A stretch of 64,000 nucleotides of DNA from Bacteroidales bacterium (GTDB lineage: Bacteria > Bacteroidota > Bacteroidia > Bacteroidales > WCHB1-69), in NCBI GenBank assembly GCA_045116675.1, contig JBGUMF010000048.1, positions 3,751 through 67,750 of the forward strand, given 5' to 3'. The notes beneath the pieces were generated by a model that was given only the letters and a program-made list of their open reading frames with translations, searched no databases and was not told where the DNA came from. Position numbers and translations under genes: made by a program. The first letter of the stretch is position 1. Every line of letters starts with the position of its first letter. This document shows, piece after piece, positions 9,192-46,717 of the stretch.

Positions 9192-9208
9192 TTTGAGATT
9201 GTTGTGGT

Positions 9209-9264: not shown

Positions 9265-9305
9265 AGGCTTTTTTGCAAATTCTCTAAACGCTCAACTCTA
9301 AACTC

Positions 9306-14226: not shown

Positions 14227-14329
14227 AATTTTTCTGAAGACTTCTTGGTTAAAAATAATGGGGTGACTGTGATCCTCTTTGCGGAAGTCTGTAACACATA
14301 GATATCGGCAGCCACTTTTTAATTGGGTT

Positions 14330-15034
14330 TTAGAATGATAAGGTCAGGCCTGCTCCGCCCGGTGTGAGGCCGAAGCGGAGTTGCATCGCCATGGTGGGTG
14401 ACGCATTGAAACGGTTGACAATCTGGTTGATGCGTACCTTGCTTCTGACTGTCAGCACGGCGGCGGGTACGATGAATGCGGTGGCCGCAAGGGCTCCGCC
14501 TGCACAAAGGAACACGCCGTACATTGCACTGCGCCAGAGAATGACACCAAGATCGTCGCTGTTGAGAATCTGCTCGTTATACTTTGCTGTCTGCACAAAA
14601 GAAGCGCAGAACTGGTATAGCCCGAGACCGGCTGTCACCGCGGCGGCACCGCCGGCCACAAAGAGCGGAATGCTGATGTACTGGTTGCGCTTCGCCTTGC
14701 GGTAATCCTTGTATTCAGATATGGAGAGCAGCCATTCCAAATCGCTGTTGTAGAGCCGGAAAAGCTCGTCGGATCCTGTGAGGTACATGTTCCCCTTCGC
14801 GTAATAAAGTCGTCCGGTGCCCCTGTCTTGGAGAAAAAGCTCTATCAGCTCATCCTTGCTCATCCCGGTATAGTCGGGGAGCGTGTCGCGCACATATAGC
14901 GTGTCGTAGGTGATTTCCTCCTCATAGATGTAGATCGTGTCCTGGTGAGTATGATCCCCATCCACTTGTGCGGTGGCGGAGAGTGTGGTTCCAGCAACGA
15001 TGAAAATCAGAAGTGCTCTTTTTAATAGGTTCAT
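14330..15034 (-). CDS. signal-peptide protein with two C-terminal TM helices (unknown function)
   Basis: MNLLKRALLIFIVAGTTLSATAQ, then a soluble domain, then two Gly/Ala-rich helices. Lies 13 nt downstream of the sigma gene. Confidence 0.6.
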   Translation of the reverse strand: MNLLKRALLIFIVAGTTLSATAQVDGDHTHQDTIYIYEEEITYDTLYVRDTLPDYTGMSKDELIELFLQDRGTGRLYYAKGNMYLTGSDELFRLYNSDLEWLLSISEYKDYRKAKRNQYISIPLFVAGGAAAVTAGLGLYQFCASFVQTAKYNEQILNSDDLGVILWRSAMYGVFLCAGGALAATAFIVPAAVLTVRSKVRINQIVNRFNASPTMAMQLRFGLTPGGAGLTLSF

Positions 15035-15047
15035 TATTATATTGCTG

Positions 15048-33038: not shown

Positions 33039-33920
33039 ATGAAAAAAATCACCTTTATCATTCTTTTTATTGCCACAGTGGCGGCAGCTTGGGCGCAGAA
33101 GCCCGACAAGAAAACCGTGAAATTGGAGAAACAGCTTGTGGGGACTTTCGTGGAAATTCCCTCGGTGCATTACACCGAGTACATCCGCGACACGAACATG
33201 GAAGTGTACGCGTCTCAGGAAATCACGCTGGCGGGATTCCGCATGTTGGAAACGGAGGTGTCCAACAAGGTGTATGACGCCTTTCTGGAGGATTTGAAAG
33301 CACAGGGCCGGATGAAGGATTACGAGTCGGCCCGTGTCCATAACGAGGGCTGGGCTCCCTGGTTGGACAGACCTGTTGACGAGTTCCTGCAAAATCAGGG
33401 AGACTGGGCACCGGTTTATGCCAATTGCCCGGTGGTGAACATCAGCTACGAAAGCGCACAACTGTTTTGCCAGTGGCTGAATGAGAAGATAGCAAGTCCG
33501 GAGTGGGAATATATGCTGCCTACTCGAGAACAATGGCGGGGTGCGGCAAGTTGTGGTGACCCTAATGCATCCTATTCTAATGGTTCTCCATTTCTTGAAA
33601 CCATTGCTAACAAACCCAGATATAACTATTGGCATGTCCCCGAAATGTATATCTCCCGCACGGACGATGGGTATAAAGTGATGGGTCTTTGGTCTGTAAA
33701 ATATCATATTCCCCCTACAGTGCCGGTGAAGACATACTACCGTAACGCCTACGGTCTTTACAATATGTGCGGCAACGCGGCGGAGATGGTTGATGAGCGC
33801 GGCGTCGCGATCGGCGGCAGCTGGTACGACCCTGGCTACGACATCCGTATCGACAGCGAGAAGCCCTACGACGCCCCGTCCCCGCTGATCGGCTTCAGGG
33901 TGATTGCGGTGAAAAAGTAA
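33039..33920 (+). CDS. SUMF1/FGE-fold (formylglycine-generating-enzyme family) protein
   Basis: Signal peptide, then ...MLETEVSNKVYDAFL..., GLYNMCGNAAEMV, GGSW and IGFRV. Confidence 0.75.
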   Translation: MKKITFIILFIATVAAAWAQKPDKKTVKLEKQLVGTFVEIPSVHYTEYIRDTNMEVYASQEITLAGFRMLETEVSNKVYDAFLEDLKAQGRMKDYESARVHNEGWAPWLDRPVDEFLQNQGDWAPVYANCPVVNISYESAQLFCQWLNEKIASPEWEYMLPTREQWRGAASCGDPNASYSNGSPFLETIANKPRYNYWHVPEMYISRTDDGYKVMGLWSVKYHIPPTVPVKTYYRNAYGLYNMCGNAAEMVDERGVAIGGSWYDPGYDIRIDSEKPYDAPSPLIGFRVIAVKK

Positions 33921-33963: not shown

Positions 33964-35181
33964 ATGACAGTGAAAGTTATGAAAAACCGGCTCGTTGCTG
34001 TTGCCAGTCTGTTGATTGTCGCACTGTTGGGTTTTGCATCGTGTGGCGGTACCAAAACCAATAATATGGGCAAGGTCACCATGGACGAGATTCGCAAGAC
34101 CGATTTGTCGCGGCTTATTATGTCCGATACCATCTTTTTAGAGCCGGATGATTATGTTTCCGAGACCGAAGAGAATGTTTTCAATGAGAAGAACTTAGAG
34201 TCGCGCTGGTTTGAGCCGATCGGTTTCCGCGGCAGCGACTGCCAGCGTTTCTACATACACTACGACTCCGTTTATCACAAAGGTAACGGTGTGTATAGGG
34301 TGTATGGTCGCACTCGTTACCGCGACACTATCCGATTATTCACCGGAATGCTTATGCTGGATTCTCTGTGGTTGAATGAGGAGGAATATCTGCCAAAATA
34401 TGCTGAATTCGGCAGGTTATACGGCTACTACATGTATGAAGAAGACGAATTTTCCGGTGGCGGGGTGCTGTCTGGCAAGATGCGGATTGACTTTGCCAAA
34501 GTAAACGGACGATTCTACTACGATGCCGTTATGCTCGGTTGCGCTGATGGTTACGAGAACAGCCAGTACGAAGGAACTTGGACGTCGAAGGATTTATCCC
34601 GCAAAGAAAAGTGCAACTGGGGCGACTTCCGGATTCCCGACTCCCAATACTTGGATGCCGGCGCGGGAGAGTTTAGTCCTGACGAAAAGTGTTTGGACCG
34701 AGGGTGGCGCATCTATACATACATTTTTGAGGAGAATGACTCCTTGCAGGCACTCTTGCGGGCTGATGAACAGTGGTTTACGCATGAAAACGACTATGTT
34801 ATCCCTTATTCCGGCAGGTTGCAGCGTTACCTCAAAACATACGGTCGCCACAAACGCCCAGCCGCCAAGGTGGTGTTGGCCACTATTCCGTCAACCGAAG
34901 AGGAATTTTATGTCTGGTATAAGGTGGTGGAAGAGCCCCTGTCACAAGACAATCACCTTTGGAATCGGATAAGCGAGTACGCCTTCGCCGACAGTACCGG
35001 CATCATGTTCGCCTACATGCGCATGGGCGAATTTTCAGACGGGTACATTTCGGAGGGTCTTTTCGATGATTATATCAGATTAAAGGAAAAACACCCTGTT
35101 CTTTTCGCCCAATATCGTAAACGGTTATCGCGAATGTGGAACGAGGTGTATGACGAATGGGAGACGTTGTACGGAGAGTAA
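33964..35181 (+). CDS. lipoprotein of unknown function
   Basis: MKNRLVAVASLLIVALLGFASCGG lipobox (the start may be 33979). No recognisable domain. Confidence 0.6.
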   Translation: MTVKVMKNRLVAVASLLIVALLGFASCGGTKTNNMGKVTMDEIRKTDLSRLIMSDTIFLEPDDYVSETEENVFNEKNLESRWFEPIGFRGSDCQRFYIHYDSVYHKGNGVYRVYGRTRYRDTIRLFTGMLMLDSLWLNEEEYLPKYAEFGRLYGYYMYEEDEFSGGGVLSGKMRIDFAKVNGRFYYDAVMLGCADGYENSQYEGTWTSKDLSRKEKCNWGDFRIPDSQYLDAGAGEFSPDEKCLDRGWRIYTYIFEENDSLQALLRADEQWFTHENDYVIPYSGRLQRYLKTYGRHKRPAAKVVLATIPSTEEEFYVWYKVVEEPLSQDNHLWNRISEYAFADSTGIMFAYMRMGEFSDGYISEGLFDDYIRLKEKHPVLFAQYRKRLSRMWNEVYDEWETLYGE

Positions 35182-35222
35182 ACATATCTTATGTTTTATT
35201 ATTCAGTTCACAGGAAAATGAC

Positions 35223-35230
35223 TATCTTTG
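35223..35230 (+). promoter_or_regulatory. -7 box
   Basis: TATCTTTG, 21 nt upstream of the ATG at 35251. Confidence 0.5.
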
Positions 35231-35250
35231 CCCTCTAATATTCGAACGCC

Positions 35251-35700
35251 ATGTTGTTATCCAAAGAAATTGCCGTCTATATCAATCTGGCCGCCTGCCG
35301 GCTGAAGCAATACACCGCCGCCATGCTGAAGCAGAATAACATGGGGCTGACTCCGGAGCAGTTCCTGTTGGTGGACATCCTCTGGAATCAGGGCCCGATG
35401 TCGCAGCAGAGCCTGGCTAACAACATGCAGAAAGACAAGAACTCTGTTACCAAGCTGGTAGATGCGTTGGAGAAAAAGTCCTTTATTGCCCGGCGGAAAA
35501 ATCCCAACGACAAGCGTTCCAATATCATTGTGCTCACACCTAAGGGCGAGCGCATGAAGCAGGAAGCCAAGCAGTTTGGTATCTCTATGTTGGACAAAGT
35601 CCTCGCCGGCATCAGCGAGGAGGAACTGCGCAACTTTCTGGTTACCTTGGACAAGCTGTCGGAGAACATGTCGCAACCACTTGCGGAGGAGTACATGTAG
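35251..35700 (+). CDS. MarR family transcriptional regulator
   Basis: Winged-helix core LTPEQFLLVDILWNQGPMSQQSLANNMQKDKNSVTKLVDALEKKSFIARRKNPNDKRS. Confidence 0.85.
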   Translation: MLLSKEIAVYINLAACRLKQYTAAMLKQNNMGLTPEQFLLVDILWNQGPMSQQSLANNMQKDKNSVTKLVDALEKKSFIARRKNPNDKRSNIIVLTPKGERMKQEAKQFGISMLDKVLAGISEEELRNFLVTLDKLSENMSQPLAEEYM

Positions 35701-35854
35701 TCCTGTGTGAGGCCCCGAAATGCCTTCAAAGATTGCGCAACCCGAGAACTGTCAAGCTTGCAGGGGTGGTTGGTGCCTCGATTATGATAAACAATGGAAA
35801 ATCATTCGCGCTTTGCGCTCGCTTGGATAGGAACAGCAATCTGTTTGCGTCTGA

Positions 35855-37138
35855 TTAGAACAACGCGCTCACCTTCTCGATGATGGTCTCGGATGGCAGG
35901 TCGGGCGAGAGGATGAGGTCGGGCTCTTTGAAGACGAATCCCTTGCTCATGGCGGTGAGGGAGCCTCCGCCGGTGCAGTTGAGCATGATGTATTCCTCCT
36001 TTTTCACCACCCCTTCCTTGACGGCTTGCGCCAGCGCGCTCACGGCCACACAGGCGGCGGGCAGAAGGTCGTAGCCCTCCAGATTACGGTACTGCATCAT
36101 CCAATACATGATGTCGTTGTTGTCGGCCAGGAACACGTCGCCGTGGCTTTCCGTCAGCGTGTCGAACAGGCCGCCGGCGAGACTGTAGGGCGGTTTGCGG
36201 TTGGAGAGCACCTTGGCGAGGATGACCTCGGCCTGACGGCGGCCCTCTTCAGCGGAAAGGTCGGGCAGGGCCCGTGACTGGGCCTTCCAGGCGTCGTACA
36301 TGAGGGTGAAGGGCTTGTTCTGGGCCACATATACGCGCATGTTGTTGTTGCCGAAGCGTCCGTCGGCCTCCAGACGGCAGGCGTTCTCCCAGGCGGCGAT
36401 GGCTCCGGTGCCGGAACCTACGGCCTGGAAGTAGGCGTCAGGGATGCGTTGCATCTGCTCCACACAGCTCAGCAGGGTGGTGCCCATGCCGTCGCGGCGC
36501 GCCACGTTCTTGGCCCCGCCTTCCAGAAAATAACGGTGGTCTTCCGCCAGCTTCTCGCCAACGGCGATGGCATCGTAATAGTCATACCCATGGGGCACGG
36601 CCACTAACTTGACGCACTTGTCCAGCTTCTTGCTGAACCAGAGGTCGTGGAGGTTGTCATAGGGCACGCACAGCACGATGGGGATGTGGTTGTCGGAACA
36701 CACCTGTGCGAAGGCGCGGGCCGTGTTGCCGGCGGACTGTACCACGAGGATGCGGTTTTCGTTGCGGCTGATGCGGGCCAGCACCGAGTAGGCCTCCGTC
36801 TCCTTGAAGGAGCAGGTGCGCATCTTGGCCCCGATCTTCGGGCACCAGCCGGAGAAGGTGATGTACAGGTTGTCCAAACCCAGGAATTTGGCCAGACCCT
36901 TGGACTTGTAGGTGACGGGGGCGCAGGATTTCTTCAGAGTGCGGTTGATGGGCATCCAGTCCGCATAGCGGTAGATACCTTTCAGGTCTTCGCGCGGGGT
37001 GAACAGGATGTTCTTGTAGATGGCGCGGATCAGCGACGGCTTCTTGCCGTCGGGGTCACTCAATGTCCAACCTTTGTCTTCAAATGTATGGCCGTTCTCA
37101 ACATTGACGAGAAGGTATTGCGTGGGTTTGAATCTCAT
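35855..37138 (-). CDS. threonine-synthase-fold PLP enzyme, most likely cysteate synthase (CapA-type)
   Basis: PLP-lysine context CSFKETEAY. N-terminus ...FEDKGWTLSDPDGKKPSLIRAIYKN...YRYADWMPI recalls annotated cysteate synthases. Shares an operon with an alpha-oxoamine synthase and an SDR. Confidence 0.65.
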   Translation of the reverse strand: MRFKPTQYLLVNVENGHTFEDKGWTLSDPDGKKPSLIRAIYKNILFTPREDLKGIYRYADWMPINRTLKKSCAPVTYKSKGLAKFLGLDNLYITFSGWCPKIGAKMRTCSFKETEAYSVLARISRNENRILVVQSAGNTARAFAQVCSDNHIPIVLCVPYDNLHDLWFSKKLDKCVKLVAVPHGYDYYDAIAVGEKLAEDHRYFLEGGAKNVARRDGMGTTLLSCVEQMQRIPDAYFQAVGSGTGAIAAWENACRLEADGRFGNNNMRVYVAQNKPFTLMYDAWKAQSRALPDLSAEEGRRQAEVILAKVLSNRKPPYSLAGGLFDTLTESHGDVFLADNNDIMYWMMQYRNLEGYDLLPAACVAVSALAQAVKEGVVKKEEYIMLNCTGGGSLTAMSKGFVFKEPDLILSPDLPSETIIEKVSALF

Positions 37139-37174
37139 AATCGTTATGGTTTTTAAGGGTGAATTATTGTTTGG

Positions 37175-39004
37175 TTATTTATTTCCTTTCTGGGTGGATG
37201 TGGATTGTGCGTTGATGATTTCCGCCAGGTCGCGCACGGGCCGGTCGGAATATCGGGCGAAGGTGGCGAGGCAGAGCGGGCAGGCGGTGGCGATGGCGTC
37301 GGCGCGGCTGGTGTAGAGGTTCTCCAAGGCGGCGCGTGTCATCTCCTCGCGCTGGGCGAAGCTGAGCGTCAGCGAGCCTAACGATCCGCCGCAGCAAATG
37401 CTCTCCTCACGGTTCTTTTCGGCCTCCGCAATGCTTGCCGACTTGCCGATGAGCTTCCGCGGCTCGTCGTAGATGCCGCATCCGCGTCCCAGCTCGCAGG
37501 GGTCGTGGAACACGTAGCACAGGTCGCTCTTCTCCAGTCGAATCTTGTCTTGTTGCACCAACTCGTTGAAATAGTGGCTGTAATGGACCACTCGGATGCC
37601 TGGCAGGTGGTATTCTTCCATGAACATCTTATAGCAGATGGGACAGCTCACCAGCAGGGTGTCGGCACCGCTGCCCAATATGATTTCTTCGTTTTTGTGC
37701 ATCAGCTCTTTGGCCGCTTCGGCACGTCCGGCGGTCAGCAGCGGTCGTCCGCAGCAGAGACCGCCGTCGCGGTCCATCCACACATAGTCCACGCCCGCTT
37801 TCTTGAGGATGGATTCCATGCTCTGTCCGATGGCGGGGGTGAGCTGGCTCATGCAGCCGCTGAAATAGAGCACCTTCCCATGGCTGGCGGTTTCGGTCAT
37901 GGGCTGTGTATTGATGTTTGAGTAGTCGGGGGAGAGGTTGTAGTGGCGGCGCGAACGTTCCATGATGCGCAGTTGCGGGCCTTCGACGCACACCTGGCAT
38001 ACGCTGTGGCACTTGCCGCAGAGGAGGCACTTGTCGGAAATCTCCTCAATGCGTTTCTCGTTGCCACGGCGCATCTGGCGGGTGAGATAGACAGTACAAT
38101 CCTTCAGATGGCTCCGGTTGACGCTCATCGGGCAGGCATCGATGCAGACGCCGCAGTTGGGACAACTGTAGACTTGCAGCTTGGCGAACCCTTTGCGGGA
38201 GTCGCGGATCTTGAGACCGGCATTGCGCAGGGGTATGAGCATCATCTCCGCCGGGATGTGCATGTAGCGCGTGAAGGGCAGCACGCACATAAAGACGCAG
38301 AGGGCGATGGAGTAGGCCCACCACGTGGGGAGCATGTTGAGGTCGTTGCCGAGGAACTGGCGGAAGATCCAGTTGGCCGGGATGGTCAGGAAGGAGCCGC
38401 CGCTGATGTGGGCGGTGAAACTCTCGGCCAGCAGTCGCAACGGGAAGATGGCCCACAACGCATAGAGGCCGATTTGGTTCAACAGGGAGGGACGTGCCGT
38501 GCGCCTCATGCCGAAGAAACGGGAGTGCACGCGCTTGATCATGGCCAGCACGATGCCGCTGAGCACAATCAGCAAAAAGAGGTCCATGAGGAACATCAGC
38601 AGGGAGCCTTGCAGGGTCACATCCGGCCCTTCAGCCACGAAGTAGTTGAAGAAGATGGGGTAGTAGAACATGTGGATACGTTCGGGTACGAAGAGGAAGA
38701 CCTCAAGATGGCCGAGTACAATGAGCATGAACCAGCCGAAGGCGATGCTGGAGTGCATGTAGCCCAACAGCTTGTTACGTTTCCAGAGTTTGACGTGGAT
38801 GAGGCAGTCCTTGAGGATGTCCCAGCAGTTCTTGACGATGATCTTGGGGTTGATAAGCGACAGCAGGAACTTGCGCAGGTCTTTTCTGGGCAGTTGCCAT
38901 AATATACGTACCATCCCGAAGAGGCAGTATGACAGTACGAAGACCATTCCGAAGAGGAAGGGCAGCACGAACGGGTGAAAGCCGGAAGGTATTCTATCAA
39001 TCAT
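37175..39004 (-). CDS. membrane-anchored HdrD/DsrK-like Fe-S protein (NarI/DsrM-like 5-TM N-domain fused to 2x[4Fe-4S] and two CCG domains)
   Basis: Five N-terminal helices with conserved His. CPNCGVCIDACP and CLLCGKCHSVCQ. CCG-type GLCCGRP...SCPICY and DPCELG...SICCGGS...ACPLC. Confidence 0.75.
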   Translation of the reverse strand: MIDRIPSGFHPFVLPFLFGMVFVLSYCLFGMVRILWQLPRKDLRKFLLSLINPKIIVKNCWDILKDCLIHVKLWKRNKLLGYMHSSIAFGWFMLIVLGHLEVFLFVPERIHMFYYPIFFNYFVAEGPDVTLQGSLLMFLMDLFLLIVLSGIVLAMIKRVHSRFFGMRRTARPSLLNQIGLYALWAIFPLRLLAESFTAHISGGSFLTIPANWIFRQFLGNDLNMLPTWWAYSIALCVFMCVLPFTRYMHIPAEMMLIPLRNAGLKIRDSRKGFAKLQVYSCPNCGVCIDACPMSVNRSHLKDCTVYLTRQMRRGNEKRIEEISDKCLLCGKCHSVCQVCVEGPQLRIMERSRRHYNLSPDYSNINTQPMTETASHGKVLYFSGCMSQLTPAIGQSMESILKKAGVDYVWMDRDGGLCCGRPLLTAGRAEAAKELMHKNEEIILGSGADTLLVSCPICYKMFMEEYHLPGIRVVHYSHYFNELVQQDKIRLEKSDLCYVFHDPCELGRGCGIYDEPRKLIGKSASIAEAEKNREESICCGGSLGSLTLSFAQREEMTRAALENLYTSRADAIATACPLCLATFARYSDRPVRDLAEIINAQSTSTQKGNK

Positions 39005-39314
39005 AAATTCTGTAAAGGGTCAAAATGAGGTGACGGGTGTTGATAGCGCGGGGGCACACCATGGTGCATTTGCCGCAGAGCATACAGTTGGATAACATGG
39101 GGCGCACATCCTGGTCGCGCTGGAGGGCGAGGATGACCTTGCGGAGGCTCATGCCGCTGAAGGATGCGGCGGTGCAGCTCGCACTGCAAGAACCGCAGCT
39201 CATGCAGATGCGGGCGTCCGGCTCCATGTTGCAGAGCTTCTTGTACAGGGTGTTGTCCACCGTGTCGAGGTTGATGGTGGAGCTTTTGCTGAGGGAGAAT
39301 CCGAAATCCATCAT
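38997..39314 (-). CDS. small di-cluster ferredoxin-like protein (HdrC-like core)
   Basis: Start taken at MMDFGF, whose ATG overlaps the upstream TGA (ATGA). CMSCGSCSASC and CMLCGKCTMVCP. The longer track ORF N-terminus is Arg/Gly junk that overlaps the hdrA-like gene. Confidence 0.65.
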   Translation of the reverse strand: MMDFGFSLSKSSTINLDTVDNTLYKKLCNMEPDARICMSCGSCSASCTAASFSGMSLRKVILALQRDQDVRPMLSNCMLCGKCTMVCPRAINTRHLILTLYRIYD

Positions 39315-40324
39315 GCCTGTGTCAGATAATGGTGAATACTGAGCACGGCGGCGCGGGCCTCGGCCACGGTCTCCGGCACGGTCTTGGTGCCCGTGCACGC
39401 GCCGGCGTAGAAGATGCCCGGTCGGTTCGACTCCATGATGGAATATACGTTGTCGCGGCTCTTGAGGAAGCCGTCGTCGTCAATGTCAAGGCCGATCATC
39501 TCAGCCAGCTCGCTGGTGCGCGGGTTGCACACCATGCCCGACATGAGCACAAGCAGGTCGAGGGTGACCTTCAACGGCTTGCCGGTGAGCGTGTCCTCCG
39601 CCTTCACCTGCACGCGGTTGTCAATGGTCTCGCCCACTTCCGACACGCGGCCACGGATGAAGTGCACGCCGAAGTCGCGCTGCGCGTTGATGTAGAAGTC
39701 TTCATATTTTTTGCCGAACAGACGCAGATCCATGTAGAAGCAATAGACCTCCGTGTCGGGGAATATCTCCTTGATTTCGATGGCCTGCTTGATGGCTGTC
39801 GTGCAGCACACCTTGGAGCATTGGCTGTTGCCGGCCTTCAGGTCGCGCGAGCCCACGCAATGCACGAAGCCAACCGCTTTGGGGTGCTCGGGGATGCGGG
39901 CATCGGCACGCTTGTTGAACCAGGCTTCCAGGTCGGCGTTGGTGATGACCCGGTCATACACGCCGTAGCCGTATTCCTCCTTCTTGGCTGCATCAAAAAG
40001 ATGGAAGCCACTGGCGACAAGGACGGCTTTGGCCACAATGTTGACACCGTTGTTTAAAATCACATTATAACTGTCTCCCAATGCGTTGATGGAGTTTACC
40101 TTGGTCTCCAGAAACACGTTGGCATCCTTGATCTGGTTGGACAAACCGTCGAGCAGCTCGTGCGAGGAGGTCATGTCGGGGAACAGCTTGTGCCATTGTG
40201 ACACGTGGCCGCCGAGGTGGTCCTGCTGTTCGATGATGATGGGGTTGTAGCCGAGTACGAGAAGCTGCTTGGCTGCCTCCATGCCGGCTATGCCGCCACC
40301 GATGATTACGATATTTTCTTTCAT
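39311..40324 (-). CDS. HdrA-like FAD/[4Fe-4S] oxidoreductase (minimal core, sHdrA/QmoA-sized)
   Basis: IVIIGGGIAGMEAA dinucleotide motif and the HdrA-family cluster signature CVGSRDLKAGNSQCSKVCC. Confidence 0.8.
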   Translation of the reverse strand: MKENIVIIGGGIAGMEAAKQLLVLGYNPIIIEQQDHLGGHVSQWHKLFPDMTSSHELLDGLSNQIKDANVFLETKVNSINALGDSYNVILNNGVNIVAKAVLVASGFHLFDAAKKEEYGYGVYDRVITNADLEAWFNKRADARIPEHPKAVGFVHCVGSRDLKAGNSQCSKVCCTTAIKQAIEIKEIFPDTEVYCFYMDLRLFGKKYEDFYINAQRDFGVHFIRGRVSEVGETIDNRVQVKAEDTLTGKPLKVTLDLLVLMSGMVCNPRTSELAEMIGLDIDDDGFLKSRDNVYSIMESNRPGIFYAGACTGTKTVPETVAEARAAVLSIHHYLTQA

Positions 40325-40328
40325 AATG

Positions 40329-41399
40329 CTAACAACATTTTATGGATTTGGGAAGCTCAGGACGCATAATATCTTCTTTGTTCAAGCCCAAATACTTGGC
40401 TTTCGGGTCGTATTCCACGCCGATTTTGTCTAAGAAAGGTTCCACAGCCACCTGGTGCAGTTGCAGACCGAGGTCCCAGGGATCATAGCCGAGGATGATG
40501 CCGGCCAGTTCCTCGTATGTCAACACGGGGATTCCGTAGCCATCTTTGCCGTAGGTCTTGCCTGTCTGCTCGGCGATGACGTACTGCCAACGGTCGAGGA
40601 AGTAGGGGCATCCGGGGCAGTTGGTGATGATGGCGTCGGGGTGGAAGGGCTCCATGGATTCAAATTTCTTCCAGGTGTTGGACACGCTGTAACTCCGGTT
40701 GGCCTTCACGTGGTATTGCCGGAACCCATAGCCGCAGCAGTGGCGCCGCTCAGGGTAGTCCACCACCTGCCCGCCCCAGCTCTCGATCATGCCGGCCAGC
40801 ACGTAGGGGTACTCCGCACCGCCCACGCCCTTGCTGGGGAACATCTTCGCATAATGGCAGCCGATGTGCTCCACAATCTTCAGTGGCTCGCCGGTCTCCT
40901 TGTTGACGAGATGGTATTTGGCCTTGGCGGCAATGGCGTTGCGCCAATGGTAGATGAGGTCGCTGGTGTGCGCCAGATACTTGGGCTTTTTGAACTCCCG
41001 CTTGCAGGCTTTCCACAGGTTCTCGCGGATCTTGGCCTCCAGCTCGGGAAACTCGTGCCATGTTTCCAAGATCTCGCAATAGTTGCCGAAGGAGGTGATG
41101 CAGCTGGGCACGTAGTTCTCGTAGCCGGCCTCCGTCATCAGGGCGAACTGCCGCGCCACGATGGTCATGACCGTCTCCTGGGGGATGGTGTCGCAGTGGT
41201 AGGCGATACCACCACAGGTGGTGTGATGAGGGGTCTCATAGAGGTCCTTTCCCAACACTTTTTGCGTGATTTCCGTGAACATCTTCTCACTGGCGGGGAA
41301 GAAATTCTGCCGGATGCAGCTGCGCACGTAATACCAGTGGTCATCGGGGATTTCCTTCTGGTAGTCGCTCCATATCTTTTGTTTGCCTTCTGTAATCAT
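40329..41399 (-). CDS. HdrB-like protein with two CCG domains
   Basis: First domain is degenerate (TTCGG). Second domain reads RRHCCGYG...TNCPGC. Follows the HdrC-like gene after 6 nt. Confidence 0.75.
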   Translation of the reverse strand: MITEGKQKIWSDYQKEIPDDHWYYVRSCIRQNFFPASEKMFTEITQKVLGKDLYETPHHTTCGGIAYHCDTIPQETVMTIVARQFALMTEAGYENYVPSCITSFGNYCEILETWHEFPELEAKIRENLWKACKREFKKPKYLAHTSDLIYHWRNAIAAKAKYHLVNKETGEPLKIVEHIGCHYAKMFPSKGVGGAEYPYVLAGMIESWGGQVVDYPERRHCCGYGFRQYHVKANRSYSVSNTWKKFESMEPFHPDAIITNCPGCPYFLDRWQYVIAEQTGKTYGKDGYGIPVLTYEELAGIILGYDPWDLGLQLHQVAVEPFLDKIGVEYDPKAKYLGLNKEDIMRPELPKSIKCC

Positions 41400-41405
41400 A
41401 ACGGA

Positions 41406-42122
41406 TTAATGGTTAAAATGTTTGTCCGAGCAGTACTCGAATGCCTGTCTTTCGTATTCTTCAATATCCATACCCATCTCTTCGGCCTTGGCTTTGGAGT
41501 ACTCCTCCACGATGCGGATGCGTTCGGTGCCGCCAGTCACATCGAAGATGGCCTTGAGCTCGTCAAGCGACTCCTGCGGTATCTTCCGCAGGATGCCGGG
41601 CCCGTCGCCCATGTAGTTGGCACCCTGGCGTGCGAGGCTCTGCTCGAGATGCTCGGTATGCCATTTCCAGACGGGGCCGGACTCTTTATGATCCTCCCAT
41701 TTGAAGGATTTGGGATGGACGCAGTAGCCGTAGTTGAGGATGTTGCCCGTCATGATGTGGGTGAGGGGCAACAACTGGCGACCCTTCTCCGATTCGGTGA
41801 AGTAGCCGAGGCGGGCACTGAGGTCGCGCAGGGCGATGATGACGAGGCCGGGCCCGTTCTTGCGCGGGCAGCGCGTCACGCAGCTCATGCACTCGCCGCA
41901 GTACCAGATGATGTCCGACTTCAGCAACTCTTCGATCTGCTTGTCGTCGCGTGTCTGCACGATGCTGACGATTTTTCGGGGATCATATTTGTAAAACTCT
42001 GCCGCCGGACATATCGCCGTGCAGGTCCCGCAGTTGATGCAGGTGTGGAACCCTTCTTTGAAACGGTAGTCCTTGCAAAGCTCCTCGTATAGGTTCTTGG
42101 GTTTGTTGTCTTCGTTGTTCAT
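41406..42122 (-). CDS. HdrC-like 2x[4Fe-4S] protein
   Basis: CINCGTCTAICP and CGECMSCVTRCP with a long helical C-terminal extension. Its ATG abuts the SDR stop (TAAATG). Confidence 0.75.
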   Translation of the reverse strand: MNNEDNKPKNLYEELCKDYRFKEGFHTCINCGTCTAICPAAEFYKYDPRKIVSIVQTRDDKQIEELLKSDIIWYCGECMSCVTRCPRKNGPGLVIIALRDLSARLGYFTESEKGRQLLPLTHIMTGNILNYGYCVHPKSFKWEDHKESGPVWKWHTEHLEQSLARQGANYMGDGPGILRKIPQESLDELKAIFDVTGGTERIRIVEEYSKAKAEEMGMDIEEYERQAFEYCSDKHFNH

Positions 42123-42920
42123 TTACATGGGTTTTATTCGTTTGGCAATACGGGCGCACAGGCCTGGGAAAAACCGTTTTACATATACCATGATGAGTTC
42201 CTTGCGTCCCACGAGCACCTCGCGTTTGCCTTTGTCAATGGCCTTCTGGATTATTTTCGCGGCCTGGTCGGGGGAAAGCCCTCCGCCCTGACCGGGGTCC
42301 ATTTTGCCGTGTGGCTGGCCGCCCTTGTCCAAAGCCCGTAACGAGATGTTGGTCCGCACGCGTCCCGGGCATACGATGGTCACACGGATGTTGCGGTCCG
42401 AATATTCGGCCTGCAGGGTCTCGAAGAAACCGTAGAGGGCATGTTTGGAGGAACAGTAGCCGCAGCGCAGCGGGAATCCGAATCGTCCGGCGATGGAGGT
42501 GGTCACGGCGATGTGGCCGCCGCCCGCCGCCAGCATCTTCGGCAGCACGGTCTTGGCGATGGCCACCGGGGCGAAGTAGTTGATTTCCATAAGCTGGCGT
42601 ATCATCCCCATGGAGGTGTCCTCCACCGTGGTGCGCTGGCTGATGCCGGCGTTGCAATACAGGATGTCGATGCGGTTGAACGCACGCCAGGCTTCTTCGG
42701 CCAGTGCCTCGATGCCGTCCGGTTGCTGCAAGTCGTAGGGTAGGGCATGGACTTTCGCGCCAAGGTCACGGCATTTGGCCACCACCGGCACCAACTCTTC
42801 TGCTGTCAAGGCGGTCAGGACCAGGGAGGCGTGCTCTGCGGCATAGCGGTAGGCGCACGCTTCCCCGATGCCGGAGGAAGCCCCTGTAATCCAGATTACT
42901 TGTCCGTTTCGTTCTGTCAT
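42123..42920 (-). CDS. SDR ketoreductase (candidate dehydrocapnine / 3-keto-sphingoid reductase, CapC-type)
   Basis: ITGASSGIGEA, CNAG and YCSSK. Lies directly downstream of the alpha-oxoamine synthase. Confidence 0.8.
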   Translation of the reverse strand: MTERNGQVIWITGASSGIGEACAYRYAAEHASLVLTALTAEELVPVVAKCRDLGAKVHALPYDLQQPDGIEALAEEAWRAFNRIDILYCNAGISQRTTVEDTSMGMIRQLMEINYFAPVAIAKTVLPKMLAAGGGHIAVTTSIAGRFGFPLRCGYCSSKHALYGFFETLQAEYSDRNIRVTIVCPGRVRTNISLRALDKGGQPHGKMDPGQGGGLSPDQAAKIIQKAIDKGKREVLVGRKELIMVYVKRFFPGLCARIAKRIKPM

Positions 42921-42947
42921 GATATCGGTTTGTGTTGTATGATGCCG

Positions 42948-44207
42948 TTAAAGAGCCATGTTGGGGATCTCGTGGTCGTAGTCGCCCTTGGCCAGACGCT
43001 CCTTGATGTCGCGGAAGGCATCCAGGGTGCGGTCCACGTCCTCGATGCTGTGCGCGGCGGTGGGGATGATGCGGAAGATCAGCATTCCGGGAGGAATGAC
43101 CGGGTAGGTGACGATAGAGCAGAAGATGTTGTAGTTCTCGCGCAGATCGACGGCGATGTTGGTGGCCTGGTTCACGCCGCATTTCAGGTGCACGGGCGTG
43201 ACGCATGCCTCCGCGGGACCGATTTCGTAGCCGAGGTCGCGGAAGCCCTTCTGGAGCCGGCGGGTGACCTCCCACAGGTGGGCACGACGGGCATCGCCTT
43301 CGGCACTGCGGATGATCTCCAGACGTTTCAGACAGCCTTCCACGATGGGCATGGGCAGCGATTTGGCGTACATCTGCGAGCGCATGTTGTATTTCAGATA
43401 ATCGATGATGGCCTTCTCCGTGGCGACGAAACCGCCGATGGTGGCCATGGACTTGGCGTAGGCACCGATGTAGATGTCAATGTCGTCCATCACGCCGAAA
43501 TGTTCGGAGGTGCCGCGTCCGTTAGGTCCCATCACGCCGAAACCGTGCGCATCGTCGATGAGGATGCGGAATTTGTATTTTTTCTTCAGGGCGGCAATCT
43601 GGTCCAGGATGCCCAGTGCGCCGGTCATGCCGAAGACACCTTCTGTGATGAGCAGCACGCCGCCGCCGTTCTGGTCGGCCACCTCGGTGGCATGAGCCAT
43701 CACGCGGTCGCAGTCCTCGATGTTGTTGTGGCGGAATTTGTACTTGTGGCCCAGATGCAGACGGATGCCGTCCAGCAGGCAGGCGTGTGCCTCTGCGTCA
43801 TACACGATGACATCGTGGCGGTTCACCAGCGAGTCGATGGTGGAGAGGATGCCCTGGTAGCCGAAGTTGAACTCGAAGGCGGCCTCTTTGCCCTCGAACT
43901 CGGCCAGCTCGCGCTCCAGTTTCTCGTGCAGGGCCGTTTGCCCCGTCATCATACGGCTGCCCATCGGGTAGGCCATACCCCAGCGGGCTGCAGCCTCCGC
44001 GTCGGTCTTTCTGATCTCCGGGTGGTTGGCAAGACCCAGGTAGTTGTTGAGGCTCCAGCAGAGCACTTCTTTGCCGTTGAAACGCATGTGCGGACCCAAT
44101 TCGCCTTCCAGTTTCGGGAAAGTGAAATAACCTTCCGCTTTATCACGGTATTGCCCGATAGGGCCGCCCGTGGATTGTTTGATTCTTTCGAAAATGTCTT
44201 TTTGCAT
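42948..44207 (-). CDS. alpha-oxoamine synthase family PLP enzyme (candidate cysteate-C-fatty-acyltransferase, CapB/SulA-type; serine palmitoyltransferase is the alternative)
   Basis: ...NNYLGLANHP..., DDAHGFGVMG, and PLP-lysine context YAKSMA. 419 aa, typical of the AONS/SPT fold. Confidence 0.8.
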   Translation of the reverse strand: MQKDIFERIKQSTGGPIGQYRDKAEGYFTFPKLEGELGPHMRFNGKEVLCWSLNNYLGLANHPEIRKTDAEAAARWGMAYPMGSRMMTGQTALHEKLERELAEFEGKEAAFEFNFGYQGILSTIDSLVNRHDVIVYDAEAHACLLDGIRLHLGHKYKFRHNNIEDCDRVMAHATEVADQNGGGVLLITEGVFGMTGALGILDQIAALKKKYKFRILIDDAHGFGVMGPNGRGTSEHFGVMDDIDIYIGAYAKSMATIGGFVATEKAIIDYLKYNMRSQMYAKSLPMPIVEGCLKRLEIIRSAEGDARRAHLWEVTRRLQKGFRDLGYEIGPAEACVTPVHLKCGVNQATNIAVDLRENYNIFCSIVTYPVIPPGMLIFRIIPTAAHSIEDVDRTLDAFRDIKERLAKGDYDHEIPNMAL

Positions 44208-44230
44208 AATGTTATAAATGTGATTGTTAA

Positions 44231-45316
44231 TTAATTGTCTGATTTGCTGACCTTTTCACGGGATACTAAGCCCATGGCTTTGAACAGGAATTTGGGCAGG
44301 GGCTTCTCCCGTTTCCGGTTGATGAGGTCGATGAACCATCCGAGCTTCTTGATGACGGGAATCTTGTGGGTCTCCACAAATTCTATCAGGGTGCCGTCCG
44401 GGTCTTCAATGTAGGTGAAATGGCCGGAGGCATCGCCCATGTCAAAGACCTCGTTGTCGGGACAGCTGTCCACGGTGAAGGGATGGCCTTTCGAGGCGCA
44501 GAACTCGCCCAGCTTTTTCATGTTGGTGATGTCGAAGCAGAGCTGGATGAACCCCGGGTCGCCCCAGTAACGTCCTTCATAAATTTTCCTTGGCGTGCGG
44601 TCCAATGCCTGCACCAGCTCGATGCTGCCTTTCGGCATAATCTCGGACAACGGTCCTTTGGGCTTGGAGGGGTCTTTGAGCAGCACGCGACGGTACTGTT
44701 CGCCGGAGCCGGGCATGATCTGCCAGTCGTCGAACTGGCCGGTTTCATCGTAAATCACCTGCTCGTAGCCCAGCACTTCACGGTAAAAACGCACGGAAGC
44801 ATCCATGTCGGTGACCCCGATGACCGCGCCCGCCACGCCACCGGTGAGACAATGCTGTTCAATGTATATGTCGGATTGCTCCACCACCTGGAGGCAATTG
44901 CCGTACAGGTCACGAATGTACAGGCAGGGCGTTCCGTCGGGTAGGGCGGATATGGCGCTGCAGTCCGGCCATTTCGAGGAGGCGAATGCATGAAATGCTT
45001 TCACGTCGCGGCATTTGATCTTGGCGGCGAAAATGCCAAGGTCGCCCACGGCGATGTCAAAGGCCACCGGCACGGGCGTGCGCTCGCTGTACTGCCAGAT
45101 CTCCAAACCGCCGCCGCCCTGCAGGCTCACGGCGATGCAGGCATGCCGCTTCTGCGGCTGGTTGCCCGTGTAGGGGAGCATCCGCTCCGCCACCGTGTCG
45201 TCTTCCAAAATCTTGATGTCAATGCCGAACATGTCGATGTACCAGTCCCACGACTTCCGCATATCTACGGTTCCTACACCAACTTGTTGAATGCCGGAAA
45301 TAAAAAAATCACTCAT
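44231..45316 (-). CDS. two-domain VOC (glyoxalase/dioxygenase-fold) protein
   Basis: Two repeated beta-alpha-beta-beta-beta-type halves (GIQQVGVGTVDM... and VAGAVIGVTDMDASVRFY...). First gene after the operon promoter. Confidence 0.65.
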   Translation of the reverse strand: MSDFFISGIQQVGVGTVDMRKSWDWYIDMFGIDIKILEDDTVAERMLPYTGNQPQKRHACIAVSLQGGGGLEIWQYSERTPVPVAFDIAVGDLGIFAAKIKCRDVKAFHAFASSKWPDCSAISALPDGTPCLYIRDLYGNCLQVVEQSDIYIEQHCLTGGVAGAVIGVTDMDASVRFYREVLGYEQVIYDETGQFDDWQIMPGSGEQYRRVLLKDPSKPKGPLSEIMPKGSIELVQALDRTPRKIYEGRYWGDPGFIQLCFDITNMKKLGEFCASKGHPFTVDSCPDNEVFDMGDASGHFTYIEDPDGTLIEFVETHKIPVIKKLGWFIDLINRKREKPLPKFLFKAMGLVSREKVSKSDN

Positions 45317-45348
45317 AAATGGTAAAAGCTTTTACTAATTTTAGGCTG

Positions 45349-45356
45349 CAAAGATA
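45349..45356 (-). promoter_or_regulatory. -7 box of the nine-gene operon
   Basis: Reverse strand TATCTTTG (followed by CAGCC), 33 nt upstream of the start at 45316. No other box was seen inside the operon. Confidence 0.5.
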
Positions 45357-45436
45357 ACAAAAGATATTGCTATCTCGGAATTTTTGGGTGGAATAATGTG
45401 ATGAAATGTCTGTTGCTAATGATAAGATTTTGAAAA

Positions 45437-46231
45437 TCAGAGTATTCTCTTGATAATCCGAAGGGTATGGGTATAGCGGCCCATCGATTGGTTGAATATG
45501 CCGTTTTCGTCTAAGGTATTGATTTGGACGAATCCGGAGGCGTGGAGGATTTGCTGGTGCCCGCACACGATGCCCGTGTGAACGATCTGGCCTTCGTCGT
45601 TGGCGAAAAAGGCCACGTCGCCGATTTGGGCTTCCTCCACAAAATCAACCACCTCGCCGTGGTTGATTTGCTGGGAGGCGTCGCGGGGCAGGTTGATGTC
45701 CAGGCTGCGGAAGACCATCTGCACGAAGCCGGAGCAGTCGATGCCGGCAGGTGTGCGTCCGCCCCACAGGTAGGGGGCGTTAAGGTAATGGAAGGCGAAA
45801 GCGAGCAGGTCGTCCTGTTGCGGGGTCAGGCCTTCGTGATGGAGGGGTTCGGCAGGCTCGGGCAGCTCCACGGTGAAGCTTTGTCTTCCCAAGGTGAACC
45901 GCCCGTTGTCCGGCATGGGGAAGGAACTCCCGATGCATACCGGGAAGGCGATATGGGTGGCCGCATTGCGTACATACAGGAAGGTGTCGCGCACAAAATA
46001 ACGGGGCGTGTTCCGGAGCAGTTCCAGCTCCTCATCTGTCAGCGGCGTGTGCTGCTTGCGGGGCAGCCAGCCTTCGTAGGCGCAGTCGTGCGTGCTGATT
46101 TTGAGCCATTCGTCGGCACACTCTACAACCGAATAGGTCTCGCCGAACAGCAGTTGGGAAACCATTTCGGAACGGTGGGAGGCCTCAGCTCTCAGGGCCG
46201 CCGACATCCAGGTGCATACACCATGTTCCAT
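45437..46231 (-). CDS. NlpC/P60 (C40) peptidase with N-terminal SH3-like domains
   Basis: YLWGGRTPAGIDCSGFVQMVF...HTGIV catalytic Cys/His context. Confidence 0.85.
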   Translation of the reverse strand: MEHGVCTWMSAALRAEASHRSEMVSQLLFGETYSVVECADEWLKISTHDCAYEGWLPRKQHTPLTDEELELLRNTPRYFVRDTFLYVRNAATHIAFPVCIGSSFPMPDNGRFTLGRQSFTVELPEPAEPLHHEGLTPQQDDLLAFAFHYLNAPYLWGGRTPAGIDCSGFVQMVFRSLDINLPRDASQQINHGEVVDFVEEAQIGDVAFFANDEGQIVHTGIVCGHQQILHASGFVQINTLDENGIFNQSMGRYTHTLRIIKRIL

Positions 46232-46270
46232 AATTCCGGAATCTTGGATGAATATTTCAGAAGATGGGGT

Positions 46271-46717
46271 TTAGAACGGCAGGTCGTCGCCTATACCGTT
46301 GTCGGTGAACGTGTCGCCAGCCGGTTCCAGGTCGGGCAGCTGCGTGTTGGCGGGATTCACCGTATGCTGCGGGGCGGGGTTGAAGTTAGGTTGGGCAGGG
46401 TAGGTGAAGTCTCCGCCTTGGGGAGGCATGGGAACACCAACTTGCGGACGCTCCAGTTTCCAGGCCTTCACATCCGTGTACCATCTGCCGTTGAACTCCC
46501 GGGATTCCAGGTCGAAAGAGACTTTTATCAAGTCGCCGATGTTGTACTGGTTGAGCTGGTCAATCTTGTCGCCCCAGAGGTTGGCGCATATTTTTCTCGG
46601 ATACTGGTCTTCGGTTTCAATGACGAATTCCTGTTTCTGCCAGGTGTTCCCCTTGGAACTGGTCCCACCCACAGGTTGCATTTTCTGGATTAATCTTCCT
46701 GTTATTTCTAATGACAT
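46271..46717 (-). CDS. DUF3127 domain protein
   Basis: MSLEITGRLIQKMQPVGGTSSKGNTWQKQEFVIET...LWGDKIDQL is the OB-like DUF3127 pattern. Low-complexity Pro-rich tail. Confidence 0.7.
   Translation of the reverse strand: MSLEITGRLIQKMQPVGGTSSKGNTWQKQEFVIETEDQYPRKICANLWGDKIDQLNQYNIGDLIKVSFDLESREFNGRWYTDVKAWKLERPQVGVPMPPQGGDFTYPAQPNFNPAPQHTVNPANTQLPDLEPAGDTFTDNGIGDDLPF

Follow-up and report, generated by a model that had tools for sequence, protein, structure and literature searches.

What would a set of heterodisulfide reductase (Hdr)-like genes do in a rumen bacterium that carries them next to genes for lipid synthesis? The question is raised by a stretch of 64,000 nucleotides (nt), hereafter called the window, which covers positions 3,751-67,750 on the forward strand of contig JBGUMF010000048.1 (Bacteroidales bacterium, assembly GCA_045116675.1). 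The source organism is an uncultured rumen Bacteroidales bacterium with the GTDB lineage Bacteria; Bacteroidota; Bacteroidia; Bacteroidales; WCHB1-69. At 37175-42122 of the window, the original prediction had recognized a gene set in the order HdrC-HdrB-HdrA-small iron-sulfur protein-CCG-domain protein, and had compared it with the sHdr loci of sulfur oxidizers. Five collinear open reading frames (ORFs) on the minus strand were confirmed there and take up the segment completely. Overlooked at that time were the genes on both sides, one for cysteate synthase (35855-37138), and two for a short-chain dehydrogenase/reductase (SDR) and SulA (42123-44207). The five hdr-like genes are sandwiched between SulA/SDR and cysteate synthase within a sulfonolipid biosynthesis operon.

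We put at roughly one half the probability that the five genes encode a menaquinone-linked variant of sHdr, independent of the lipoate-binding protein LbpA, which would oxidize reduced sulfur to sulfite for the synthesis of cysteate and sulfonolipids. The known sHdr is held to oxidize sulfane sulfur to sulfite, and EMO has been proposed as the menaquinone link of type II sHdr (PMC11094781). This reading is favoured because sulfite, the product ascribed to sHdr, is the co-substrate of the adjoining cysteate synthase; because the junction between the hdr-like set and cysteate synthase is kept across deep divergence while the outer flanks differ; because the HdrB-like protein shares the ligand signature of sHdrB1 and the HdrA-like protein has the short architecture of sHdrA; because the membrane protein of 609 residues resembles EtfD, EMO and HdrDE and has conserved heme His residues; and because one sister set (locus L012) adjoins genes for a persulfide-dioxygenase/rhodanese fusion, a rhodanese and a TauE-family protein. 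Of the clues to function, none is stronger than the position of the set inside a sulfonolipid operon and beside cysteate synthase.

Nine collinear genes

The run comprises nine genes on one strand, VOC-SulA-SDR-HdrC-HdrB-HdrA-ferredoxin-609-residue protein-cysteate synthase, with gaps of no more than 36 nt. Its members are listed below in this order.

44231..45316, minus strand: two-domain VOC/glyoxalase-family protein, 361 residues, first gene of the run (Pfam Glyoxalase, 2e-12)
42948..44207, minus strand: SulA/CapB-type cysteate acyl-ACP (C-fatty acyl) transferase of the alpha-oxoamine synthase family, with PDB matches
42123..42920, minus strand: SDR, 265 residues (Pfam adh_short, 5e-50), its stop abutting the hdrC start with a 0-nt gap
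41406..42122, minus strand: HdrC1-like subunit with two [4Fe-4S] clusters, 238 residues (NCBIfam HdrC, 6.7e-22)
40329..41399, minus strand: HdrB1-like subunit, 356 residues (NCBIfam HdrB, 4.8e-36)
39311..40324, minus strand: short HdrA-like flavoprotein with flavin adenine dinucleotide (FAD) and [4Fe-4S], 337 residues (NCBIfam HdrA2, 1e-70)
38997..39314, minus strand: ferredoxin with two [4Fe-4S] clusters at the sHdrC2 position, 105 residues (Pfam Fer4_9/Fer4_8)
37175..39004, minus strand: membrane protein, 609 residues, with a NarI/HdrE-like domain of five transmembrane helices, two [4Fe-4S] clusters and two CCG domains
35855..37138, minus strand: cysteate synthase (O-phosphoserine + sulfite -> L-cysteate; NCBIfam TIGR03844), which closes the run

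The HdrC-HdrB and HdrB-HdrA gaps are 4-6 nt, and cysteate synthase follows the gene of the 609-residue protein after 36 nt. The ferredoxin ORF as called spans 38997-39398; its start lies most likely at 39314 (MMDFGF..., 105 residues), because the orthologues have 105-111 residues and this start gives a 4-nt overlap with the hdrA stop. Every motif quoted in the original prediction was found in the translations. Since the cluster-binding Cys residues of the five hdr-like proteins are conserved at 99-100% in about 80 orthologues, the five ORFs are real genes under selection. With Pfam CCG at 7.6e-23 for the 609-residue protein, the family matches are, by their scores, well beyond chance. The NCBIfam Hdr scores are far under the equivalog cut-offs, indicating that the proteins are relatives of the methanogen enzymes and not members of their families.

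The flanking genes belong to the sulfonolipid (capnine/sulfobacin) pathway, for which the window holds a CapA/Cys cysteate synthase, a CapB/SulA/CFAT enzyme and an adjacent SDR as the CapC/KCR candidate. Cysteate synthase scores 418.7 bits against the TIGR03844 equivalog, with the cut-off at 324.9. The best PDB matches of SulA are 7U7H (SulA of Alistipes finegoldii, 568 bits) and 28eh ('cysteate-C-fatty acyltransferase', 545 bits), as compared with 221 bits to serine palmitoyltransferase, and the SulA-specific Lys (the diagnostic residue according to PMC9304779) is present in 'SQMYAKSLPMP'. Acting after cysteate synthase, SulA catalyses the second reaction of sulfonolipid synthesis, which PMC9304779 counts as the first. 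Based on its position and on the pathway described in PMC11211663, the SDR is probably the 3-ketocapnine reductase. In A. finegoldii the KCR genes are reported to be scattered and unclustered with cfat and cys (PMC11211663), whereas in the window the three steps, the hdr-like set and the VOC gene form a single run. The sulfonolipid-pathway literature that we searched names cysteate synthase, CFAT/SulA and KCR only, and neither hdr-like genes nor a source of sulfite.

The Hdr-like core and the membrane subunit

For comparison, 80 bona fide sHdr loci were retrieved from metagenomes with the sequence of PDB entry 6TJR, the sHdrA of Hyphomicrobium denitrificans. These reference loci have the order C1-B1-A-H-C2-B2-x-LbpA, with lipoate ligase and DsrE upstream. 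The likeness of gene order claimed in the original prediction is borne out, as the set parallels shdrC1-B1-A-(H)-C2-B2 and includes the core C1-B1-A with a short HdrA (about 340-350 residues, one FAD, one [4Fe-4S]).

The HdrC-like protein carries the motifs CINCGTCTAICP and CGECMSCVTRCP, and its eight Cys are conserved at 99-100% in the orthologues. It is 31% identical to sHdrC1 of a reference sHdr locus (89 bits, blastp), and scores 48 bits with the methanogen HdrC 5ODC_C (phmmer).

The HdrB1-like protein, the putative catalytic subunit, contains the motifs HCCGYG and TNCPGC, and C28, C62, C100, C181, C221, C222, C261 and C264 are conserved at 100% in 85 orthologues. Eight of the ten cluster Cys are kept, Cys41 being replaced by Thr and Cys81 by Ser. 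The CCG residues, whose lack would have spoken against the original prediction, are complete at one site and altered at the other: the C-terminal site is canonical and the N-terminal site is remodelled in the manner of sHdrB1. Cys81 is one of the two bridging Cys on the catalytic irons of Hdr (PMC13083937). Canonical HdrB and sHdrB2 retain all ten Cys, and the exchange of Cys81 for Ser, mostly accompanied by that of Cys41 for Ser or Thr, is common to sHdrB1, the window HdrB and its relatives only. The same proteins share the motifs 'HT[TS]CG..YH', 'C.TSFGNY' and 'CCG.GFR'. The features Cys41->Thr, Cys81->Ser, 'CxTSFGNY' and 'CCGxGFR' of the window HdrB were seen in 56 of 56 reference sHdrB1 sequences. 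One residue differs: Cys231 is kept in the window HdrB, and Asp stands at that position in sHdrB1.

A rough neighbour-joining tree of HdrB proteins (300 columns, 100 bootstraps, distances computed with numpy) places the window clade as sister to the sHdrB1 clade with 85% support, and not inside it. One group (100%) joins the Bacteroidales with a deltaproteobacterial group and an Altiarchaeales/cyanobacterial group; the other (100%) contains sHdrB1 and two unnamed relatives. Methanogen HdrB lies elsewhere in the tree.

The HdrA-like protein carries GGGIAG followed by CVGSRDLKAGNSQCSKVCC, and C156, C169, C173, C174 and C195 are conserved at 100% in its orthologues. Its residues 4-329 align with the 349 residues of 6TJR (205 bits), and it is 32% identical to sHdrA of the reference loci (183 bits); the HdrA that the original prediction saw as only the minimal core is of the short sHdrA type. 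In contrast, its alignment with methanogen HdrA is limited to the FAD-binding N-terminal stretch (residues 4-55) and the core (94-330).

Type I sHdr, as in H. denitrificans and Aquifex aeolicus (shdrC1B1AHC2B2 with lbpA), shares with the window set the C1-B1-A core followed by a second ferredoxin and CCG module, a short 6TJR-like HdrA, the HdrB1 signature (Cys41->Ser/Thr, Cys81->Ser, 'CxTSFGNY', 'CCGxGFR') and canonical sites in the second CCG module; its proposed product, sulfite, also fits the cysteate synthase next door. The window set differs from type I in the canonical C-terminal site of HdrB (Cys231->Asp in sHdrB1), in a membrane-bound second module, in the level of identity (26-32%), and in a strictly anaerobic host and a biosynthetic rather than dissimilatory context.

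Methanogenic HdrABC (5ODC) has the same subunit families and cluster-binding folds, and the C-terminal non-cubane site of HdrB is likewise intact in the window. Its HdrA, however, has 643-671 residues against 337 in the window, the remainder of the methanogen protein being without counterpart; the window HdrB has 8 of the 10 Cys ligands, Cys81, one of the two bridging or catalytic Cys, being among those lost; and no hydrogenase or formate dehydrogenase partner is encoded in the window. A canonical methanogen-type HdrABC was ruled out by the HdrA architecture and the HdrB ligand set.

The second module had been described as a remodelled C/B pair, and this holds: a small ferredoxin takes the place of C2, and a double-CCG protein with canonical sites is joined to a membrane domain in one chain. 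There is no EtfAB, and the module matches neither sHdrC2B2 nor sHdrB3-EtfAB-EMO exactly. The ferredoxin contains CMSCGSCSASC and CMLCGKCTMVCP, its eight Cys are conserved at 100% in 71 orthologues, and its similarity to sHdrC2-type proteins is weak (36-42 bits). For the fifth protein the earlier label 'HdrD/B-like' was right for the CCG part (motifs GLCCGRP and SICCGGS) and missed the membrane domain of five helices and the two [4Fe-4S] clusters. The N-terminal domain comprises about 260 residues with five predicted transmembrane helices. In the orthologues H70, H84, H99 and H249 are conserved at 99% or more, and all 18 cluster Cys, five in each CCG domain among them, are conserved.

The closest PDB sequence match of the 609-residue protein is 9OJN, the EtfD of Mycobacterium smegmatis (2e-16). 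An AlphaFold2 model built on a shallow alignment (24 sequences at 73-100% identity; pLDDT 71.5, pTM 0.54) was used for topology and the top Foldseek match only; 9OJN again ranked first, over the full length (E 1.9e-17, 18% identity, TM about 0.47), and a LutA model second. M. smegmatis EtfD has five transmembrane helices and a heme b on His78/His241 beside the menaquinone site, followed by an iron-sulfur wire homologous to HdrBC/HdrD (PMC13083937). In the EMO of Syntrophus aciditrophicus the ligands of the proximal heme are His87/His251, and the membrane domain ends near residue 260 (preprint 10.64898/2026.08.18.745454). H249 of the window protein aligns with the EtfD heme ligand His241, and H84/H249 match His87/His251 of EMO in position. 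Judged by these alignments, the protein is a fusion of the HdrDE/EMO/EtfD type, presumably the link to menaquinone via its b-type cytochrome domain.

HdrDE and EMO/EtfD (9OJN) have the same three-part build of b-cytochrome domain, two [4Fe-4S] clusters and two CCG domains. The differences are that HdrDE consists of two subunits as against one polypeptide in the window, and that the window protein is encoded together with HdrABC-like partners instead of alone or with Etf. The host is a bacterium, and no methanogenesis genes are in view (the substrate of HdrDE is CoM-S-S-CoB); nor was etfAB, the partner of EMO/EtfD, found in the window region or in the related loci. Type II sHdr (shdrC1B1AHB3-etfAB-emo) has the same C1-B1-A core with an EMO-type membrane protein and a presumed menaquinone route (PMC11094781), whereas the window lacks EtfAB, sHdrH and a separate sHdrB3, and its EMO-like gene stands directly after that of the small ferredoxin. 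The distal CCG site also differs. In M. smegmatis EtfD a Cys is replaced by Thr539 and His583 completes cluster D2 (PMC13083937), and in S. aciditrophicus EMO one Cys ligand of this site is missing (preprint 10.64898/2026.08.18.745454); the window protein has two complete HdrD-type non-cubane sites. With its HdrD-type ligands complete, the window protein could perform catalysis itself besides conducting electrons.

CCG-domain proteins also occur in the electron modules of lactate, glycolate and glycerol-3-phosphate dehydrogenases (Lut, GlcF and GlpC types) and in the Qmo-type link between quinone and adenosine 5'-phosphosulfate reductase, and partial matches of the 609-residue protein to LdhH (93 bits), GlpC (51 bits) and GlcF (43 bits), as well as the LutA model in second Foldseek rank, would agree with such a role. 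These scores are far under the cut-offs of 800, 278 and 333 bits, respectively, and neither the window nor the related loci contain genes for LutB/LutC, GlpA/B, GlcD/E or AprAB. The window HdrB does not branch with Lut/Glp proteins, as it scores 124.6 bits with the HdrB equivalog against 26 bits with LdhH and groups with sHdrB1 in the tree. The Lut/GlpC/GlcF and Qmo readings, which we consider extremely improbable, were ruled out by the hidden Markov model (HMM) scores, the absent partner genes and the position of HdrB in the tree.

Distribution, linkage and neighbouring genes

The HdrB-like family is sharply bounded, with 748 matches at E<=1e-3 and 59 at E<=1e-30 (50% clustering). The Bacteroidales clade is at least 65% identical to the window HdrB, followed by groups at about 45% and by archaeal HdrB at 29-37%. 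In species-representative genomes at least 592 stretches match, and the best 80 of these are nearly all from uncultured rumen or gut Bacteroidales, including Candidatus Cryptobacteroides, Egerieisoma and bins labelled Rikenellaceae and Lentimicrobiaceae; a metagenome-assembled genome (MAG) from water-buffalo reticulum is 99% identical to the window. The pentad of hdr-like genes is intact in every locus of sufficient length. The remark in the original prediction that such a set would be unexpected in Bacteroidales thus needs qualifying, the set being widespread in uncultured members from gut and rumen.

Linkage was counted in the 66 loci that extend far enough and, for the upstream genes, in 63 loci. 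Cysteate synthase stands directly downstream of the 609-residue protein gene in 35 of the 66, at a spacing of 6-96 nt in all pairs but one (306 nt). The linkage persists in lineages where the identity of the 609-residue proteins is down to 50-60% and the outer flanks have nothing in common; the downstream cysteate synthases of these distant lineages score 454-459 bits with the equivalog. SulA is located directly upstream in 12 of the 63 loci, all 12 of which have cysteate synthase downstream, and SDR and SulA stand together upstream of hdrC in 10.

Three single loci deserve mention. In L058, a Bacteroidales locus, the place behind the membrane protein gene, elsewhere that of cysteate synthase, is taken by a gene for a TrpB-like pyridoxal phosphate enzyme (14271-15629; NF009057, 688 bits). 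L077 ('Methanomethylophilaceae archaeon') and L084 ('Eggerthellaceae bacterium') carry a Bacteroidales-type MarR-pentad arrangement, with an HdrB identity of 78%, the same as in the Bacteroidales bins L083, L086, L088 and L089; they are probably mis-binned contigs.

The sister clades show other contexts. In L012 (GCA_943367425.1, 6099-13659) the order is C-B-A-C2-B2 without sHdrH, and just upstream are genes for a persulfide-dioxygenase/rhodanese fusion, a rhodanese-YgaP protein and a TauE-family membrane protein, and an ORF of 155 residues. L175 (4552-11511), on an Altiarchaeales-like contig, has C-B-A, two small ferredoxins and a 632-residue orthologue of the window membrane protein, which is 34% identical over the full length and has the same four His. 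The presence in L175 of a C2 (166 residues)/B2 (288 residues) pair as well means that both kinds of second module occur in one locus. On the cyanobacteria-like contigs L176 (1-13636), L177, L178 and L179, C-B-A-C2-B2 adjoins a divergent [2Fe-2S] ferredoxin gene; in L176 the set lies within about 7 kb of nifK-nifV-nifZ-nifT, and in L179 near sufBD and a NifH-like gene. In L010 (5028-10187) and L011, from a deltaproteobacterial MAG, C (320 residues), B (346) and A (351) are accompanied by a Fer4+CCG fusion of 422 residues (sHdrB3-like) and an amidohydrolase, within a polysaccharide-biosynthesis cluster. In Phormidium (L008, 10001-12403) an hdrB-like gene, its product 43% identical to the window HdrB, is an orphan: it neighbours a psbA-type (Photo_RC) gene and has neither an HdrA nor an HdrC partner. 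As independent support these contexts are mixed, one of them (L012) being sulfur-related, and we give them little weight. The ninth sulfur that enters the L-cluster during its assembly reportedly derives from sulfite (PMC10622910), and a sulfite-supply role in the nif-associated cyanobacteria-like loci is conceivable as pure speculation.

Two further features lie at the ends of the run:

35251..35700, plus strand: MarR-family regulator, convergent with cysteate synthase (Pfam MarR, 8.8e-19)
45349..45356, minus strand: candidate promoter box TATCTTTG, which fits the Bacteroidetes -7 consensus TAnnTTTG and lies 33 nt before the VOC start codon

The MarR protein is probably a dedicated regulator of the set, and may respond to sulfur or sulfite. 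On the strand of hdrC and immediately before it, the gene occurs in L001-L007 (about 8820-9330) and in 8 of the 63 loci; in the window lineage it is convergent and lies after cysteate synthase. The promoter box, a lone consensus match, might mark where the nine-gene operon begins. No match to the strict Bacteroidetes promoter pattern was obtained in 35-46 kb, and scans for sigma-70 promoters and terminators in 35000-46500 gave counts at or below the shuffled expectation. The operon structure is read from gene spacing and strand only, because these scans were uninformative. VOC stands directly upstream of SulA in 13 of the 63 loci (VOC-SulA-SDR triad), and no role for such a protein in sulfonolipid synthesis is described in the papers examined.

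Two long plus-strand ORFs, 40455-42092 (545 residues) and 42747-44234 (495 residues), lie antisense to hdrB/hdrC and SulA; they look like GC-rich shadow ORFs and were dismissed as genes because the strong family matches belong to the minus-strand proteins. Farther away, three adjacent plus-strand genes at 304-5585 encode a GNAT-type acyltransferase (369 residues), an SDR (271 residues) and a fusion protein of 1076 residues with Fer2_4, Pyr_redox_2, 4Fe-4S, BFD [2Fe-2S] and DAO domains, and this pair of N-acyltransferase and SDR is of possible interest in a sulfonolipid producer. At 33039-33920 (plus strand), 2 kb from the operon, is a gene for a lipoprotein-like protein of 293 residues with an FGE-sulfatase (formylglycine-generating enzyme-like) domain.

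Proposed sulfite supply and competing readings

Taken together, the five genes are predicted to encode a membrane-anchored, sHdr-like iron-sulfur flavoprotein complex, which appears to combine an sHdr-like core with a membrane subunit of the HdrDE/EMO type in a biosynthetic context, without LbpA or sulfur transferases. Reduced sulfur (persulfide or sulfane sulfur, or sulfide) would be oxidized to sulfite at the HdrB1-like site. Electrons would pass from HdrC to the FAD and [4Fe-4S] of HdrA, then through the ferredoxin and the clusters of the 609-residue protein to heme b and menaquinone, and onward to, for example, fumarate reductase. The co-transcribed cysteate synthase would trap the sulfite at once with O-phosphoserine, and SulA and SDR from the same operon would carry cysteate to capnine and sulfonolipid. 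The set would then be the sulfite-supply module of an anaerobic sulfonolipid pathway, operating without lipoate-binding protein or sulfur transferases.

Several observations weigh against this assignment. LbpA, lipoate ligase, sHdrH and DsrE/TusA are reported to 'always' accompany sHdr, and all flank the reference loci. None of them is near the window set: profile HMMs for LbpA and DsrE and a motif search for TusA gave nothing for the window, searched as six-frame ORFs, or for 87 related loci, and tblastn searches for LplA, sHdrH, rhodanese and TauE were likewise negative in these 88 neighbourhoods (1.56 Mb). One GcvH-like ORF in L058, about 9 kb away from the pentad, is the sole exception. 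For sHdrH there is also no gene between hdrA and ferredoxin, which overlap by 4 nt. The statement of the original prediction that no lipoate-binding or sulfur-carrier genes are in view agrees with the window searches for LbpA, DsrE, TusA, LplA and rhodanese; its phrase 'compact sHdr-type set' stands for the C-B-A order, the short HdrA and the sHdrB1-like ligands, and fails for the sHdrH, LbpA, LplA, DsrE and TusA companions. Lacking these companions, the set belongs to neither type I nor type II sHdr in the defined sense. The overall identity of the window HdrB to sHdrB1 (26%, 99 bits) is lower than that to methanogen HdrB (30%, 118 bits), the corresponding values for sHdrB2 being 29% over a partial alignment and 56 bits, and the HdrB tree is a crude neighbour-joining tree with thin sampling. 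No cultured sulfonolipid producer, such as A. finegoldii, was found among the carriers, the clusters of 20 proteins containing MAG names only; the only carrier names other than MAGs, two cyanobacterial entries, came from a separate search. The proposed function further depends on gene context and on homology to sHdr, whose own chemistry is not reconstituted. Finally, the surroundings vary among the sister clades, from nif and ferredoxin genes or sensor kinases to a polysaccharide cluster, and 31 of the 66 loci have unrelated downstream genes in place of an adjacent cysteate synthase, which indicates that the pentad can stand alone. These downstream genes encode hydrolases, deformylase, a lipocalin-like protein, an ABC1 kinase and a TrpB-like enzyme, and no alternative sulfite consumer is among them.

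The unlinked loci suit a different explanation, in which the set is a general redox or energy module without a specific part in sulfonolipid synthesis. It would couple thiol/disulfide or ferredoxin/NAD(H) to the menaquinone pool, HdrA perhaps carrying out flavin-based bifurcation or confurcation, and cysteate synthase would stand next to it through inherited synteny. In favour of this, the pentad forms an autonomous and strictly conserved unit, sister sets stand beside [2Fe-2S] ferredoxin and nif genes or sensor kinases, and the fully canonical HdrD-type CCG sites of the 609-residue protein are what is expected of a disulfide reductase. However, the junction with cysteate synthase survives deep divergence while the flanks turn over, and a subset of loci gained SulA and SDR on the other side, which would leave five 'unrelated' genes in the middle of a biosynthetic operon. 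The catalytic subunit, moreover, has the sHdrB1-specific site and not the canonical heterodisulfide site, and no candidate partner dehydrogenase (Mvh, Flx, Fdh or Etf) is encoded nearby. We regard a general redox module, the main rival, as unlikely; it stays alive because of the 31 unlinked loci and the heterogeneous sister-clade contexts.

The energetics set a further limit on sulfite formation by oxidation. The potentials are about -116 mV for HSO3-/HS-, about -40 mV for HSO3-/S0 and about -74 mV for menaquinone. With menaquinone as acceptor, the oxidation of sulfide is therefore slightly favourable and that of sulfane sulfur slightly unfavourable. The latter, as one more point against the proposal, would be feasible only if pulled by sulfite consumption and an oxidized quinone pool.

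Sulfite might instead be supplied reductively, by S-S cleavage of thiosulfate, S-sulfocysteine or R-S-SO3- with electrons from menaquinol and/or a low-potential donor, and this product would still account for the linkage to cysteate synthase. The thiosulfate/(sulfide + sulfite) couple, at about -400 mV, is so negative that menaquinol alone could not drive the reaction. The chemistry of Hdr is S-S cleavage at non-cubane clusters (PMC13083937), and canonical catalytic-type CCG sites are present, two in the 609-residue subunit and one in HdrB. On the other hand, no thiosulfate or sulfonate transporter and no sulfurtransferase is encoded nearby, and the nearest functional relatives by signature, the sHdrB1 proteins, are assigned to oxidation. 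Reductive supply seems to us quite improbable, and the oxidative route is preferred.

The sulfite source for sulfonate biosynthesis in sulfide-grown anaerobes has been described as unclear (PMC6286981), and the proposed route would suit the needs of a habitat rich in sulfide and free of oxygen. The pentad may be how strict anaerobes make sulfite for sulfonate lipids. A bolder proposal, which we hold tentatively and a little below even odds, is that an LbpA-independent, menaquinone-coupled sHdr-like complex fills the gap in how sulfite for sulfonates is formed anaerobically from sulfide or sulfane sulfur, and that in Bacteroidales it is dedicated to cysteate and sulfonolipid. Because L012 lies near a TauE-family gene and rhodaneses and others near nif cofactor-assembly genes, the wider family (Altiarchaeales-like, cyanobacterial and deltaproteobacterial) may be a general 'biosynthetic sulfite generator'.

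A linkage of hdr or sHdr genes to cysteate synthase or sulfonolipid synthesis was not found described in the full texts searched, and the published sulfonolipid pathway begins at cysteate synthase, which requires sulfite. Gut Bacteroidota make sulfonolipids that have immunological activity and for which a link to inflammatory bowel disease has been reported. Even if the sulfite reading is wrong, the genes represent a widespread, uncharacterized membrane-bound Hdr-like complex of gut anaerobes. If it is true, the set would be an enzyme that produces sulfite anaerobically for biosynthesis and not for energy, with sHdr-type chemistry performed without lipoate-binding protein and wired to menaquinone via an HdrDE-like subunit; such LbpA-free operation would constrain mechanistic models of sHdr itself. 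Sulfonolipid production by the many uncultured carriers among the Bacteroidales of rumen and gut could then also be predicted from a genomic marker and tested by expressing the nine-gene operon.

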